A stretch of 39,407 nt of DNA from Escherichia coli. Its GTDB lineage: Bacteria; Pseudomonadota; Gammaproteobacteria; Enterobacterales; Enterobacteriaceae. The stretch's first letter is position 1. Each line of letters starts with the position of its first letter. A program made the translations under genes and the position numbers. Below are positions 7,038 through 38,923 of the stretch, one piece after another. The stretch lies in NCBI RefSeq assembly GCF_016903815.1, contig NZ_CP069970.1; one strand, 5' to 3'. The notes under the pieces are model-generated. The model was not told the DNA's origin. It ran no database searches and worked only from the letters and a program-made list of their open reading frames with translations.

Positions 7038-7541
7038 TTACTGATAGTGTTTTATGTTCAGATAATGCCCGATGACTTTGTCATGCAGCTCCACCGATTT
7101 TGAGAACGACAGCGACTTCCGTCCCAGCCGTGCCAGGTGCTGCCTCAGATTCAGGTTATGCCGCTCAATTCGCTGAGTGTAACGCTTGCTGATTACGTGC
7201 AGCTTTCCTTTCAGGCGGGATTCATACAGCGGCCAGCCATCCGTCATCCATATCACCACGTCAAAGGGTGACAGCAGGCTCATAAGACGCCCCAGCGTCG
7301 CCATAGTGCGTTCACCGAATACGTGCGCAACAACCGTCTTCCGGAGCCTGTCATACGCGTAAAACAGCCAGCGCTGGCGCGATTTAGCCCCGACGTATCC
7401 CCACTGTTCGTCCATTTCCGCGCAGACGATGACGTCACTGCCCGGCTGTATGCGCGAGGTTACCGACTGCAGCCTGAGTTTTTTAAGTGACGTAAAATCG
7501 TGTTGAGGCCAACGCCCATAATGCGGGCTGTTGCCCGGCAT
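7038..7541 (-). CDS. insB: IS1 InsB reading frame (expressed as the InsAB' frameshift fusion)
   Basis: Protein matches the IS1 transposase InsB; overlaps insA as in canonical IS1. Confidence 0.9.
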
Positions 7542-7735
7542 CCAACGCCATTCATGGCCATATCAATGATTTTCTGGTGCGTACCGGGTTGAGAAGCGGT
7601 GTAAGTGAACTGCAGTTGCCATGTTTTACGGCAGTGAGAGCAGAGATAGCGCTGATGTCCGGCAGTGCTTTTGCCGTTACGCACCACCCCGTCAGTAGCT
7701 GAACAGGAGGGACAGCTGATAGAAACAGAAGCCAC
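7460..7735 (-). CDS. insA: IS1 InsA
   Basis: [30 protein letters not shown]... matches IS1 InsA; GTG start. Confidence 0.9.
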
Positions 7736-7948
7736 AGGAGCACCTCAAAAACACCATCATACACTAAATCAGTAAGTTGGCAGCATCACCGGCATTCAAA
7801 ATCATTATGACCGCGATCTATTTCTGGCTGTTCTCTATCACTTTTGGCGGCATCGTCGCTCATGGGTAAGGGGAGTATATTAGCCATTTGGAACCCCACG
7901 GTCTCTTGCGGGTTTAATTAAGAACCCGCAAGAAAAATACGAATTGGG

Positions 7949-16663: not shown

Positions 16664-17857
16664 GTGACCTGGGACGATCACAAGAAGAATTTTGCTCGCC
16701 TGGCGCGAGATGGTGGTTACACCATCGCACAGTATGCCGCCGAGTTTAATCTTAACCCTAATACTGCACGTCGTTATCTCCGTGCCTTCAAAGAAGACAC
16801 CAGGACAGCGGACAGCCGCAAGCCAAATAAACCAGTCAGGAAGCCACTAAAAAGCATGATCATTGATCACTCTAATGATCAACATGCAGGTGATCACATT
16901 GCGGATGAAATAGCGGAAAAACAAAGGGTTAATGCCGTTATCAGTGCCGCAGTCGAGAATGCGAAGCGCCAAAATAAGCGTATAAATGATCGTTCTGATG
17001 ATCATGACGTGATCACCCGCGCCCACCGGACCTTACGTGATCGCCTGGAACGCGACACCCTGGATGATGATGGTGAACGCTTTGAATTCGAAGCTGGCGA
17101 TTACCTGATAGATAACGTTGAAGCGCGGAAGGCCGCTCGCGCTATGTTGCGTCGGTCCGGGGCCGATGTTCTGGAAACCACTCTTCTGGAAAAGTCTCTT
17201 TCTCATCTCCTTATGCTGGAGAACGCCAGGGATACGTGTATTCGTCTGGTGCAGGAAATGCGCGATCAGCAAAAAGACGATGATGAAGGGACTCCGCCTG
17301 AATATCGTATCGCGAGCATGCTAAACAGCTGTTCCGCGCAGATAAGCAGCCTGATCAACACCATTTACAGCATCCGGAATAACTATCGAAAAGAAAGCCG
17401 GGAGGCGGAAAAGCACGCTTTATCTATGGGGCAAGCTGGCATTGTTAAGCTGGCATACGAACGAAAGCGTGAAAATAACTGGTCAGTGCTGGAAGCAGCT
17501 GAATTCATCGAGGCGCATGGCGGAAAAGTGCCGCCCCTGATGCTGGAGCAAATCAAAGCCGATCTGCGTGCTCCTAAGACCAATACCGATGATGAGGAAA
17601 GGCAAACAGCCGTCGGTGGCCCTTCTCTTGAAGATCTGGACAAAGTTGCGCGAGAACGGGCCGCCAACCGCCGCGCCGATGCCGCATTGTGGATTGAGCA
17701 GCGTAGGGAAGAAATCGCCGATATCGTTGATACAGGCGGTTATGGAGATGTTGATACTGAAGGTGTATCAAACGACCCATGGCTGGAACAAGACCTGGAC
17801 GAAGACGAGGAGGAAGACGAAGAAGTTACCCGCAAGCTATACGGGGATGATGATTAA
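16664..17857 (+). CDS. pacA: terminase/pacase small subunit PacA
   Basis: 397 aa, GTG start after AAAGGAAG; contains the pac hexamer clusters in its 5' part; TAATG overlap with pacB. Confidence 0.9.
16857..17016. other. pac packaging site: four TGATCA(N) elements (16857-16897), then three (16987-17016)
   Basis: Seen directly: TGATCAT, TGATCAC, TGATCAA, TGATCAC, then ~90 bp, then TGATCG, TGATCA, TGATCAC. Each has a GATC Dam site. This is the established P1 pac architecture inside pacA. Confidence 0.75.
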
Positions 17858-19341
17858 TGGCCAGAAGTTGCGTAACGGATCCACGTTGGCGCGAGCTGGT
17901 GGCGCTATATCGTTATGACTGGATTGCTGCCGCTGATGTTTTGTTCGGCAAAACACCTACCTGGCAGCAGGATCTGATTATTGAGTCTGTGCAGGAACAG
18001 GGTAGCAAGACATCTGTTTCGTCTGGTCACGGTACCGGGAAATCAGACATGACTTCTATCATGATCATGTTGTTCATAATCATGTATCCCGGTGCCCGCG
18101 CCATTATCGTTGCGAACAAAATTCAGCAGGTAATGACCGGTATATTCAAGTACATCAAGATAAACTGGGCTACTGCCACCAGCCGTTTTCCATGGCTTGC
18201 TGATTATTTTGTTCTGACAGAAACCGCTTTCTATGAGGTTACTGGTAAAGGTGTATGGACTGTAGTACCGAAGGGCTTTCGTCTGGGAAGTGAAGAAGCT
18301 CTCGCCGGTGAACACGCAGATCATCTTCTGTATATTATCGATGAAGCCTCCGGTGTCAGTGATAGAGCTTTCGGTATCATCACCGGTGCTCTTACCGGAC
18401 AGGATAACCGCATCTTATTGCTGTCACAGCCTACACGCCCAAGCGGCTATTTCTACGATACACACCATAAACTGGCCAAGCGTCCTGGTAACCCTGATGG
18501 CGTTTATACGGCGATCACGCTTAACAGTGAGGAATCACCGTTGGTAACGCCAGCATTTATCAAAATGAAGCTGGCGGAGTACGGCGGGCGTGATAACCCT
18601 ATGTACATGATTAAGGTACGCGGCCTATTCCCTAAATCACAGGATGGCTTCCTTCTTGGACGTGATGAGGTTGAACGTGCAACGCGGCGGAAAGTCAAGA
18701 TTGCCAAAGGATGGGGCTGGCTTGCATGTGTGGACGTTGCTGGTGGTACGGGACGGGATAAGTCCGTTATCAATATCATGATGGTGTCCGGCCAGCGAAA
18801 TAAACGCCGTGTAATCAACTATCGAATGCTGGAATACACAGACGTTACAGAAACGCAGCTTGCCGCCAAAATTTTCGCAGAATGTAATCCTGAGCGATTC
18901 CCAAATATCACCATAGCGATAGACGGCGATGGCCTGGGTAAAGCAACGGCGGATCTGATGTACGAGTATTATGGTATTACCGTACAGCGTATACGCTGGG
19001 GTAAAAAGATGCATAGCCGTGAAGATAAGAGCCTGTACTTTGATAAACGTGCTTATGCCAACGTTCAAGCCGCAGAGGCCGTAAAATCTGGTCGTATGAG
19101 ACTGGATAAGGGTAATGAAACTATTGAGGAAGCGTCGAAAATCCCTGTAGGGATTAACTCCGCAGGTCAATGGAAGGTGATGAGTAAGGAGGATATGAAG
19201 AAAAAACTCAACCTGCACTCACCAGACCATTGGGATACATATTGTTTCGCTATGCTGGCGGATTATGTTCCCCAGGATGAAGTGCTTAGCGTCGAAGACG
19301 AAGCGCAGGTTGATGAAGCTCTGGCATGGCTTAATGAATGA
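17857..19341 (+). CDS. pacB: terminase/pacase large subunit PacB
   Basis: 494-aa ORF translationally coupled to pacA; terminase-like ATPase region. Confidence 0.9.
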
Positions 19342-34897: not shown

Positions 34898-36628
<1,731 letters not shown>

Positions 36629-37903
36629 ACGGCAAACATTCCCAATTCACAGAGTCCGACCTAAACCACATGAAGCGGCTTAGGAATTACAGACTCTCCA
36701 AGGGCTAACACTGCCAGCCCGGCAGCTTTTATATTACGGGCCGCGTTAATATCACGATCATGCTCTGCGCCACATTCCGGGCAGTGCCATTTACGAATAT
36801 TAAGAGGCATTTTTTGCATGGTGAAGCCGCAACTGCTGCAACGTTTGGAAGAAGGGAAATACTGGTCGATAGCGACAATGCTACGTCCACCCCATTCTCC
36901 TTTGTACTGGAGTTGGCGTACAAGTTCGCTCCAGCCTGCGTCAGCTATTGCTTTAGACAGCTTCGGGTTACGGATCATGTTTTTCACTTTAAGGGATTCG
37001 ACGCAAACAACTTGGTTTTCGTTAATCAGTTTGCGGGACAACTTATGCAGGTTATCCATCCGACAATCGACTATTCTCGCGTGGAGGCGGGCAACCTTTA
37101 AACGTGCTTTGGCGCGGTTCTTTGAGCCTTTTTGTTTCTTGCTCAATCTGCGCTGTAACACTGCTAATCGCTTCGCGTATTTAGCGTTGTGTCGAGGATT
37201 GCCAGTTTTAAAACCGGTATCGGTGACGAACAAATCTTTTAAACCAATATCAATGCCGACCGTGGAAACGGTGATCGGCAGTGATACAGGCTCAAACTCG
37301 CAGAGACAGGATACAAAATATCGTCCGGCAGCATCCCTGGTGATAGTGACAGTGGATGGAGCAGACGGCAACGGACGGCTCCAGCGAACATCTAACGGCT
37401 CTTTGCTCTTTGCCATGTACAGCTTGCCGTCACGGTATTTAAATGCGCTGGCAGTTAGTTCTGCGGCCTGTTTATGCCGCTTGCTCTTAAAAACTGGGTA
37501 TGCAGCACGCCCGGCGAAAAAGTTAGCAAAAGCCGTTTGTTGGTGGCGCAGAGACTGCTGGAGGGGGACGCAGGAAACGTCATTCAGCCAAGCGAATTCT
37601 GGTTCTTTTTTCAGTGCCGTTAATTTGGCGCTGGCTTGTGCATAGCCGACCCTCTCATGGCGTGCGTAGTACGCATCGGTGCGCCAGCGAAGGAGGCTGT
37701 TATAGACAAAACGCACACACCCAAAAGTCCGGGCTAATAGCTCGGTTTGTTCGGGAGTTGGATAGAATCGATATTTATAGGCACGCTTCATGTTCTATAT
37801 AATACATTGAAACTAATGAGTATATAAATGAATACACGGACGAAAATGTTATCAAAGCCAATATACCAACAGACATTAGGTAAGGTAGCTGGAGGGCAAT
37901 ATA
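36629..37903 (-). mobile_element. IS200/IS605-family element carrying only tnpB (IS1341-type), boundaries approximate
   Basis: tnpB fills the whole prt-pro intergenic interval; no tnpA present; exact ends not determined. Confidence 0.5.
36661..37791 (-). CDS. tnpB: TnpB (OrfB) RuvC-like RNA-guided nuclease
   Basis: 376 aa. RuvC-I GIDIGLKD, Glu in VVCVESLK, zinc finger CSSCG...CPECG, RuvC-III HDRDINAARNI. Confidence 0.85.
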   Translation of the reverse strand: MKRAYKYRFYPTPEQTELLARTFGCVRFVYNSLLRWRTDAYYARHERVGYAQASAKLTALKKEPEFAWLNDVSCVPLQQSLRHQQTAFANFFAGRAAYPVFKSKRHKQAAELTASAFKYRDGKLYMAKSKEPLDVRWSRPLPSAPSTVTITRDAAGRYFVSCLCEFEPVSLPITVSTVGIDIGLKDLFVTDTGFKTGNPRHNAKYAKRLAVLQRRLSKKQKGSKNRAKARLKVARLHARIVDCRMDNLHKLSRKLINENQVVCVESLKVKNMIRNPKLSKAIADAGWSELVRQLQYKGEWGGRSIVAIDQYFPSSKRCSSCGFTMQKMPLNIRKWHCPECGAEHDRDINAARNIKAAGLAVLALGESVIPKPLHVV

Positions 37904-38923
37904 ATGACTGATGTTTTGAAAACGGTCACTGACCGCTTTTGTCTCTATAGCAATGCTCGAAAAGGTCGCCAGAACGGGCGACAGTATGTATTAAGCGCGG
38001 TTAAGACCATGCTTGAAAGCAAGGAAACTCAGGAAGGTTTACGCCTTGGAGAGCTTTTCGGCTATTACGGTCACGGTCGCCGACAGCTGACCGGCAAACT
38101 GGAAGTACCAGAAACCAGCGTAATCATGGTGGAAGGTCGCCCGGTCGTAATCGACAATGTTCCAGCGTGCCGCACAGTGGCTATATCCGTTGACGACAAC
38201 GGCATCGTTACCCATACACAGGAAATTCTTAACACAGAGCCGGGTAAAATTGTCGCCGCGATGATCGAAAGCCGAGCTGGTGGCTGGAGCTGGGCCACTG
38301 GCGGGCGTGAGTCCGGGAAAATCGCTGTAACCACCAGCTTCCATGGTGTGGATTATGTGACAACGCCGAACTATATCAGTCTGGATCATCCTGCCAGCGC
38401 CGGAATGTTTGAAAGCGCGGATTCTAAATCTTTACTGGCAGAGTCCCTGGCGGCGCATGGGTACTCCGACGAGTCAGTGCAGGCCGTTATATCCCATTAC
38501 GGCAAAATGGCTGAACTGGAAATGATGGTGGAGGCGACAGAGCGTACGGCAGAACTGGAAACTGCACTACTCGAAAGCCAGGGCCGCCACCTCGAAGCAA
38601 TGGCCAAGATCGCAGATGCTGAAGCGCGAATCGCTTTGCTGGAGGAAACAGCGGGTATCCGCGACGATGTGCTGGCAGCAATGCAAGACGAACTGGATAA
38701 CCTCCCGATCTTCGTCTCCGCCGCCCAAAAAGACGCATTCCGCCTCAAAGAACCTGGTGATGCAAAAATCGTTGCCACACTTTTCGAATCTCTGATCAAA
38801 GTTGGCGCACGCAACTTGCCTGTCACCAAGAAAATTAAGGAGGTTCCGCAAGCGGCTAACGTCCAGGCACCGCGTGAGACAAGCATCATCACGTTTAATA
38901 ATTCAATCAATCCGTTTAAATAA
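37904..38923 (+). CDS. pro: head processing protease Pro
   Basis: 339-aa ORF with SD GGAGGG; N-terminal protease-like region and C-terminal coiled-coil (scaffold-like); position after prt as in P1. Confidence 0.65.
   Translation: MTDVLKTVTDRFCLYSNARKGRQNGRQYVLSAVKTMLESKETQEGLRLGELFGYYGHGRRQLTGKLEVPETSVIMVEGRPVVIDNVPACRTVAISVDDNGIVTHTQEILNTEPGKIVAAMIESRAGGWSWATGGRESGKIAVTTSFHGVDYVTTPNYISLDHPASAGMFESADSKSLLAESLAAHGYSDESVQAVISHYGKMAELEMMVEATERTAELETALLESQGRHLEAMAKIADAEARIALLEETAGIRDDVLAAMQDELDNLPIFVSAAQKDAFRLKEPGDAKIVATLFESLIKVGARNLPVTKKIKEVPQAANVQAPRETSIITFNNSINPFK

Follow-up and report, generated by a model that had tools for sequence, protein, structure and literature searches.

The closest TnpB of known structure to the one described here is that of ISDra2 from Deinococcus radiodurans (PDB 8bf8/8exa), which combines a three-domain architecture with a D-E-D catalytic triad and a CxxC..CxxC zinc finger. 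ISDra2 also has a structured RNA that overlaps the 3' end of the gene, extends to the right end of the element and takes its guide from the flank. We found an element with these features in a P1-like phage-plasmid sequence, a 39,407-nucleotide stretch of Escherichia coli contig NZ_CP069970.1 (assembly GCF_016903815.1) that we call the window. This P1 element lies between the phage genes prt and pro, and its TnpB is about 40% identical to that of ISDra2 over the full length. Unlike ISDra2, which has tnpA and the transposon-adjacent motif (TAM) TTGAT, the P1 element is without tnpA, has an inferred TAM of TCAT and a degenerate left end, and is hosted by a phage-plasmid. With a probability of roughly 55%, we suggest that it acts as a selfish RNA-guided homing or exclusion nuclease against element-free P1-like genomes and not as a transposon.

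Closer relatives are found in the IS1341 group of Enterobacterales, such as 'ISEc42' in ON470615 and the ybhB-bioA copy of E. coli, which share 80-86% nucleotide or amino-acid identity with the P1 element in tnpB. They also share the GTCAA right terminus, the TCAT flank, a left end of similar length (108 versus 112 nt) and placement at start codons. In contrast to them, the P1 element has lost the left-end hairpin, has a remodelled right-end hairpin sequence and is known only at the prt/pro junction of P1. The nearest named relative of the P1-borne TnpB is GipA of Gifsy-1 (STM2600.1n; deposited as 'Peyer's patch-specific virulence factor'), likewise a 376-aa solo TnpB, with 84% amino-acid identity. 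The gipA element is also antisense in a phage late operon (gpZ/gpU), where it abuts the gpU start codon and supplies its Shine-Dalgarno sequence. It differs in its lambdoid prophage host, in a perfect 21-bp left-end hairpin (-28.5 kcal/mol; record L003, ~2655-2762) and in its published phenotype, which is related to virulence. That phenotype may merit re-reading through TnpB biology or through effects on gpU expression.

Homing by TnpB has been described for chromosomal Geobacillus elements with TnpA and for engineered multicopy plasmids (Meers et al. 2023, PMC10055086; Mears et al. 2025, PMC11870625). As in the P1 case, the guide records the insertion site, the empty allele alone has TAM and target side by side, and cutting favours the element-bearing allele. 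The P1 case differs from these systems in that it concerns a natural phage-plasmid population, is apparently independent of TnpA and is based on comparative evidence only. A further parallel is offered by free-standing phage homing endonucleases such as the seg and mob genes of T4. These are selfish nuclease genes that lie between essential phage genes and show presence/absence polymorphism, with the empty allele as target, short linked tracts and target-site variation. Their target recognition is protein-based, whereas that of the P1 element would be RNA-guided, with homing inferred. Public records already annotate TnpB or ISEc42, so the gene itself is not new. We found no functional study of the element or of its start-codon pattern in the literature searched, the coverage of which was incomplete. 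As far as the searchable literature shows, the probable role in P1 and the comparative evidence for it are new.

A tnpB-only element between prt and pro

The inserted element and its only gene are as follows.

36609..37903, minus strand: whole inserted element, 1295 bp, delimited by the alignment with P1, by GTCAA as the family's right terminus and by TCAT flanking the left end
36661..37791, minus strand: tnpB coding sequence, 376 aa, with RuvC residues D181/E265/D347 and zinc-finger cysteines C318/C321/C337/C340

The element belongs to the IS200/IS605 family and is of the tnpB-only (IS1341-like) class. In this P1-like phage, it is flanked by the portal gene prt (34907..36628, plus strand, 573 aa) and the head-processing gene pro (37904..38923, plus strand, 339 aa). 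Alignment and megablast showed that the prt/pro junctions of P1, P7, SJ46 and RCS47 are free of it. Among phage records, megablast found the same arrangement in one, vB_EcoM-673R5 (99.9% identical); the matches to P1, P7, RCS47, SJ46, phi456 and others were confined to the two flanks. The original prediction took prt and pro to be adjacent in P1. They are indeed neighbours there, and in fact overlap by 8 bp (ATGACTGA), so the intergenic interval seen in the window is a product of the insertion.

On the P1 alignment, the extra DNA falls between ...ACGATA and ATGACTG..., with a 3-nt (ATA) ambiguity. We settled this by aligning the ends with those of the Gifsy-1 gipA element, the E. coli chromosomal ybhB-bioA copy, plasmid copies from Yersinia, Citrobacter, Klebsiella, Serratia and Edwardsiella, and IMG/VR contigs. 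The right ends of all aligned relatives finish at ...GTCAA and the sequences beyond are unrelated; this conserved terminus places the element at 36609..37903. An insertion filling the prt-pro interval had been rightly proposed, with a start at 36629 that lies 20 nt short of the true one. The gap between the tnpB and prt stops, given before as 33 bp, measures 32 nt (36629-36660). Read along its own strand, the element consists of TCAT (37907-37904), a 112-nt left end, tnpB and a 52-nt right end, followed by the flank TATCGTTTCCCTCTTT (36608-36593). There is no target-site duplication at the P1 junction, as expected for IS200/IS605. We considered whether 36609-36637, the 29 nt past the megablast similarity, were foreign flank holding an old guide, and rejected this because the alignment shows a diverged but structurally conserved terminal hairpin.

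As originally proposed, tnpA is absent: tblastn with the IS200C TnpA gave no match in the window. A second tnpB was not found in the window either. The name 'ISEc42' under which a GenBank record annotates the element is the depositor's. One carrier plasmid, NZ_CP027133.1 (L096), has an IS200C tnpA-only element at 7405-7863, between the holin region and pro and about 115 bp from the pro stop. Its TnpA is of the same superfamily and probably not the cognate one.

The nuclease and its predicted guide RNA

Searches of NCBIfam, Pfam and the PDB agree with the original prediction of a 376-aa TnpB on the opposite strand between prt and pro. The protein scored 358 bits against the NCBIfam guided_TnpB model NF040570 (cutoff 100). 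With the exception-level model IS200_TnpB NF038281 it reached 393.7 bits, below the cutoff of 425, and it is therefore filed in the broader guided_TnpB family only. Pfam domains HTH_OrfB_IS605 (PF12323), OrfB_IS605 (PF01385) and Cas12f1-like_TNB (PF07282) follow one another as an N-terminal HTH/WED-REC part, a RuvC-like domain and a zinc-ribbon domain. The best match of solved structure was ISDra2 TnpB 8bf8 (E=7e-77, full length). In this alignment, D181, E265 and D347 correspond to ISDra2 D191, E278 and D361, and the four zinc cysteines C318, C321, C337 and C340 are all present. The RuvC triad and zinc finger are thus intact, as first supposed, and the triad shows none of the inactivating substitutions that had been raised as a possibility.

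The ratio of non-synonymous to synonymous substitution rates (dN/dS) of tnpB against its relatives is 0.08-0.12. Among P1-borne copies, all seven single-nucleotide polymorphisms (SNPs) lie within tnpB, and six of them are synonymous and one non-synonymous. Judged from these substitutions and from the RNA structure described below, tnpB and the predicted omega-RNA look functional and under purifying selection. In ON470615.2 (L002), the deposited phage record closest to the window, two compensating indels frameshift about 270 nt of tnpB (element positions ~298-566), so the annotated 'ISEc42 transposase' of that record is only 243 aa. These indels are probably sequencing errors. The window copy is identical to those of plasmids such as NZ_CP027133 and CP119117.

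We looked for the RNA scaffold in the last 127 nt of 14 family members, which were aligned and folded with RNAalifold; shuffled alignments and slid pairing partners served as controls.

36609..36735, minus strand: right end and predicted omega-RNA scaffold, overlapping the last ~75 nt of tnpB and ending at the element boundary

RNAalifold returned six helices with 32 consensus pairs, 18 of which show compensatory changes. On the consensus structure, 96.7% of cells were paired, compared with 84.5% in shuffles and 34-47% with slid partners. The covariation score was 0.453 versus 0.208 in shuffles, and none of 500 shuffles reached 0.453. The P1 copy retains all helices; its terminal hairpin differs in sequence from those of relatives yet still pairs. 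The scaffold region of the P1 copy also folds well as a single sequence (z=-4.4). When 36300-38100 was compared with Rfam under a permissive E-value, no curated omega-RNA family was found. The only match, at 36639-36704, was to RF03064 (RAGATH-18), with 21.8 bits (E=0.48) under the gathering threshold of 44.9, so that the resemblance is positional and architectural only. RAGATH-18 is a known right-element RNA (reRNA) motif of IS607 TnpBs (PMC11061315). The covariance search proposed with the original prediction stayed below threshold in Rfam, while our own covariation test of the 14 members was positive.

In TnpB systems, the ~16 nt that follow the right end on its 3' side serve as the guide (PMC8612924, PMC10055086). 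By this rule, the flank adjoining the right end of the P1 element is the guide.

36593..36608, minus strand: predicted 16-nt guide TATCGTTTCCCTCTTT, directly 3' of the right terminus, in the 3' codons of prt and including the old pro Shine-Dalgarno sequence
37904..37907, minus strand: predicted TAM, TCAT; its complement, ATGA, consists of the start codon of pro and one further base

The expectation that the guide would derive from the 3' region of prt is borne out by these coordinates. Of the independent family sites examined that retain an intact left end, all but one (L041) have TCAT as the left flank. In the window, the guide has one perfect match, the element's own flank, which is preceded by GTCAA and not by the TAM; the next-best match has 3 mismatches. 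The minus strand of the empty sites of P1, P7, SJ46, RCS47 and pE92 reads TCAT|TATCGTTTCCCTCTTT, that is, TAM plus perfect target. Carriers have the same 16 nt behind GTCAA, with the TAM 1.3 kb away. With TAM and target so separated, carriers should be immune, whereas element-free P1, with TCAT and a perfect target, is a genome that the nuclease should cut. The same self/non-self logic has been described for TnpB homing (PMC10055086) and for a TnpB gene drive in plasmids (PMC11870625).

A sister subgroup (L007, L012, L043, L044) shares the GTCAA right terminus and has TTTAT in place of TCAT at its left flank. A different TAM is implied for it, and placement at start codons is presumably absent there.

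Distribution of the element among P1-like plasmids

We counted alleles by searching complete E. coli genomes with a 59-mer that spans the empty site, which matched 491 records.

269 of 491 records: identical to P1
about 169 records: one mismatch, which in all three records read is T>G at -2, target position 2
13 records: two changes; target position 4 (-4) carries G>A, and A>G at +3 turns the TAM TCAT into CCAT
about 38-40 records (~8%): carriers, in which the match is limited to the right flank and left-end-like bases

A separate count by similarity found 38 records with the element at >=99% identity. These numbers also answer the question, raised with the original prediction, of whether the same tnpB sits here in all P1-like genomes: about 8% carry it and P1 itself is without it. 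Near-identical copies (>=99%) were found only in plasmids of ~95-100 kb from E. coli, E. albertii and E. fergusonii. All five carrier plasmids that we fetched are P1-like and have the element at the prt/pro junction, and no other site was seen among copies whose context was read. The polymorphism is thus one of presence or absence at a single fixed site where the empty allele is the predicted nuclease target, which is one mark of a homing endonuclease gene.

Over their 1295 nt, carrier copies from plasmids of the three species show 0-4 differences from the window copy (<=0.31%). Their flanks differ by 1.8-2.2%, which equals the difference between carriers and non-carriers. In four carriers, flank identity with the window ends at -101 to -161 and at +98 to +146. 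No SNP in the flanks is diagnostic of carriers, which also differ from one another in accessory cargo beside ssb and in replicon type. By these divergences, the element appears younger than the backbones that carry it.

The empty-site variants seen (L103, L104-L106; P1 site L098, 10006-10013) all lie inside the predicted TAM or seed. Across 14 aligned genomes, no other position varies within +/-97 nt of the junction, while 6% of positions vary over the 11-kb region. TAM-proximal mismatches reportedly block cleavage by ISDra2 TnpB. Clustering of SNPs in TAM and seed is the pattern expected of resistance to a guided nuclease, and the variants may be resistance alleles.

Fit of the element between prt and pro

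The element sits exactly between the pro ATG and the native pro Shine-Dalgarno sequence, and both of its ends contribute to the genes beside it.

37891..37896, plus strand: element-supplied Shine-Dalgarno sequence GGAGGG, 7 nt upstream of the pro ATG; relatives have the same terminal motif GGAGGCATTCTG|ATG
36609..36628, plus strand: new C-terminal tail and stop of prt, element-encoded, ...IDNCPP*
37792..37903, minus strand: left end, 112 nt, 32% G+C, degenerate, without the subterminal hairpin of relatives

On the right, prt runs 17 nt into the element to a TAA, so that the Prt terminus changes from ...ND* to ...IDNCPP* and the last 6 codons and stop are element sequence. Since the right end rebuilds the prt stop and the left end the pro ribosome-binding site, the insertion is tolerated.

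The left end of the P1 copy can barely be aligned with those of relatives, save for two stretches, 13 nt at the terminus (37891-37903) and the final ~25 nt beside the tnpB start. In relatives, a G+C-rich subterminal hairpin at the left end resembles that at the right end; the P1 copy keeps only the right-end hairpin. As DNA, its left end folds with -1.2 kcal/mol (z=+0.8), compared with -28.5 kcal/mol for that of Gifsy-1. Subterminal hairpins are the elements that TnpA recognizes in IS200/IS605. Mobilisable members of this family have hairpins at both ends and tnpA inside or near the element; here one hairpin is gone and tnpA is absent from both the element and the window. The 13 nt that were kept hold the pro Shine-Dalgarno sequence, which suggests that selection preserved the part needed by pro and let the transposition signal decay. 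Considering the lost hairpin and the single occupied site, the element probably no longer transposes. The earlier description of an active-looking insertion therefore applies to the nuclease and its guide RNA and not to transposition.

The start of tnpB has no Shine-Dalgarno sequence. In every family member, a -10-like hexamer ends 7-8 nt ahead of the ATG, as TATTAT in the window copy (within 37799-37828, minus strand) and as TAGTAT or TAATAT in relatives. This arrangement is weak evidence that the tnpB mRNA may be leaderless.

37774..37828, both strands: a back-to-back pair of sigma-70-like matches; the plus-strand match (37774-37803) points towards pro, and the minus-strand match (37828-37799) ends 8 nt before the tnpB ATG

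Placement of the family at start codons

The position beside a start codon is not peculiar to the P1 copy. At 16 of 17 independent family sites, the TCAT beside the left end, read as ATGA on the opposite strand, starts an open reading frame (ORF) of 116-538 aa. The sites listed are 37904-37907 in the window and L003, L004, L006, L008, L011, L032, L033, L038, L040, L049, L108-L110 and L112-L114; a strict scan of contigs with a 23-nt left-end motif gave 8 loci, 6 of them new sites. The genes concerned include pro, gpU, ybhB, traX and trbC as well as genes of Klebsiella, Serratia, Chimaeribacter and viral contigs. The family left end is a constant 108 nt and terminates in GGAGGCATTCTG|ATG, which puts GGAGG 7-8 nt upstream of the neighbouring ATG. 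At 8 of 11 sites, an upstream co-directional ORF stops at the TGA within the right terminus (T-TGA-C). In reconstructed empty sites, stop and start often overlap as ATGA, and a native Shine-Dalgarno sequence is always present just upstream. The flanks show no conservation past TCAT. By a rough estimate, ~3% of genomic TCATs are start codons, and ~25% of sites would be expected to be so placed if all intragenic insertions were lost. Set against either figure, 16 of 17 needs explaining.

We offer a wider account only tentatively, as possible and not as probable. It holds that the termini of the family evolved to fill gaps between Shine-Dalgarno sequence and ATG harmlessly, and that the P1 copy has turned into a transposase-free RNA-guided homing or exclusion gene against which P1-like phages are evolving resistant targets. 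If so, the right terminus T-TGA-C would restore the stop of the upstream gene, the left terminus GGAGGCATTCTG|ATG would give the downstream gene a new Shine-Dalgarno sequence, and the element could lodge antisense inside essential phage and plasmid operons. The resistant alleles would be the SNPs in seed and TAM, found in ~37% of empty sites.

A second, unrelated solo TnpB gene, insQ, lies at 17519-18868 in the P1-like Salmonella phage SJ46 (L100). Its 402-aa product is only 34% identical and it lies antisense between a ddrB-like gene and ddrA. The left end of insQ abuts a TCAT at which ddrB starts, and ddrA terminates at the TGA of the insQ right terminus. About 40 large IMG/VR viral contigs (50-100 kb; L051-L092, many from sample 3300045988) encode TnpBs 38-41% identical to the P1-borne one. 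Solo TnpBs appear to be common in another phage group.

Homing or exclusion weighed against other explanations

The history that we propose would begin with a single past insertion 3' of TCAT, in the gap between pro Shine-Dalgarno sequence and ATG within the prt/pro overlap of a P1-like phage-plasmid. The element would then produce a catalytically intact TnpB and an omega-RNA whose scaffold ends at the right boundary and whose guide is the adjoining 16 nt of prt. If an element-bearing and an element-free genome came together in a cell, TnpB would cut the latter within the final prt codons. That genome would then either be destroyed (exclusion) or be repaired from the element-bearing copy (homing or gene drive). 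With transposition probably lost, the element would persist by this route alone. The identity and boundaries of the element, its intact catalytic residues, the conserved RNA structure, the TAM, the match of guide and target and the population pattern are observed. This comparative pattern fits homing without proving it.

Several points weigh against such a role. Expression, cleavage and homing are inferred, and the TAM is derived from flanks only. The promoter matches are no more numerous than in shuffled sequence, which is chance level. Carriers make up only ~8% of P1-like plasmids, a modest share for an efficient drive. P1 immunity and incompatibility restrict the co-residence of element-bearing and element-free genomes. 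The -2 variant, read in 3 of ~169 records, replaces D by E in the Prt tail, a conservative change, and could therefore be ordinary polymorphism. Heavy recombination among P1-like genomes, acting on a standing polymorphism, could equally spread a young element with short linked tracts.

Ordinary recombination combined with tolerated polymorphism of the Prt tail is thus a serious alternative to homing. Taken further, the element would be a passive passenger, a single harmless insertion shuffled among P1-like backbones by homologous recombination, with TnpB of no relevance to P1. The flanks of P1-like genomes are indeed mosaics with blocks of a few hundred bp, the ON470615.2 copy is frameshifted and the L048 ORF is truncated, and both the carrier frequency of just ~8% and the chance-level promoter matches suit a passenger. 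We nevertheless regard it as rather unlikely, since tnpB is under apparent purifying selection, with six synonymous changes to one non-synonymous among P1 copies and a dN/dS of ~0.1 against relatives. Its RNA helices were also held by compensatory changes while the left-end hairpin, which the nuclease can do without, decayed. Furthermore, variation at empty sites is concentrated in TAM and seed, and the guide matches the empty allele perfectly.

The occupation of one site could also reflect a non-autonomous insertion sequence that is mobilised by TnpA in trans and has repeatedly and independently entered the same TCAT. The family clearly does transpose elsewhere, since Yersinia and Chimaeribacter each have more than one copy, located at different sites, and the carrier plasmid NZ_CP027133.1 (L096) has an IS200C tnpA beside pro. 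TCAT occurs thousands of times per genome, which makes repeated hits on one of them very unlikely. Near-identical copies are moreover restricted to the ~95-100-kb plasmids, with all contexts read at one site; the P1 copy is without the left-end hairpin that relatives keep alongside the right-end one, and there is no TnpA in the window. Trans mobilisation as a whole is improbable, and we rejected repeated insertion by TnpA on account of the lost hairpin and the single occupied site. Very improbable is a domesticated regulator, either an RNA-guided repressor like TldR or antisense transcription that modulates prt and pro. In its favour, some TnpB derivatives encoded by phages do regulate transcription (TldR; PMC13418256), the element runs antisense to the late operon around it, and its Gifsy-1 relative GipA is reported as a virulence factor (annotation of AF246666). 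TldRs are nuclease-dead and are recognized by loss of RuvC residues or C-terminal truncation, whereas the P1-borne TnpB is full length, and we rejected an identity as TldR because its triad is intact. The guide also speaks against a regulator: its one perfect match in the window is the element's own flank, behind GTCAA and not the TAM, and all others have >=3 mismatches.

Implications for P1-like phage-plasmids and TnpB

TnpB genes are among the most abundant in prokaryotes and most copies are 'solo', and how they are maintained without a transposase is debated. The P1 case is a natural and experimentally tractable system for this question, with P1 genetics, E. coli hosts and existing carrier and non-carrier plasmids. 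The homing or gene-drive model predicts that TCAT followed by TATCGTTTCCCTCTTT is cut, that inheritance is biased in mixed infections and that the natural -2G and CCAT alleles are resistant. Resistance genes travel on P1-like phage-plasmids, and P1 serves as a standard vector for transduction and delivery. Competition among these phage-plasmids would be affected if some of them housed an RNA-guided nuclease directed at their element-free relatives. Should the start-codon placement prove general, it would represent a new means by which an insertion sequence can reside in operons without harm.

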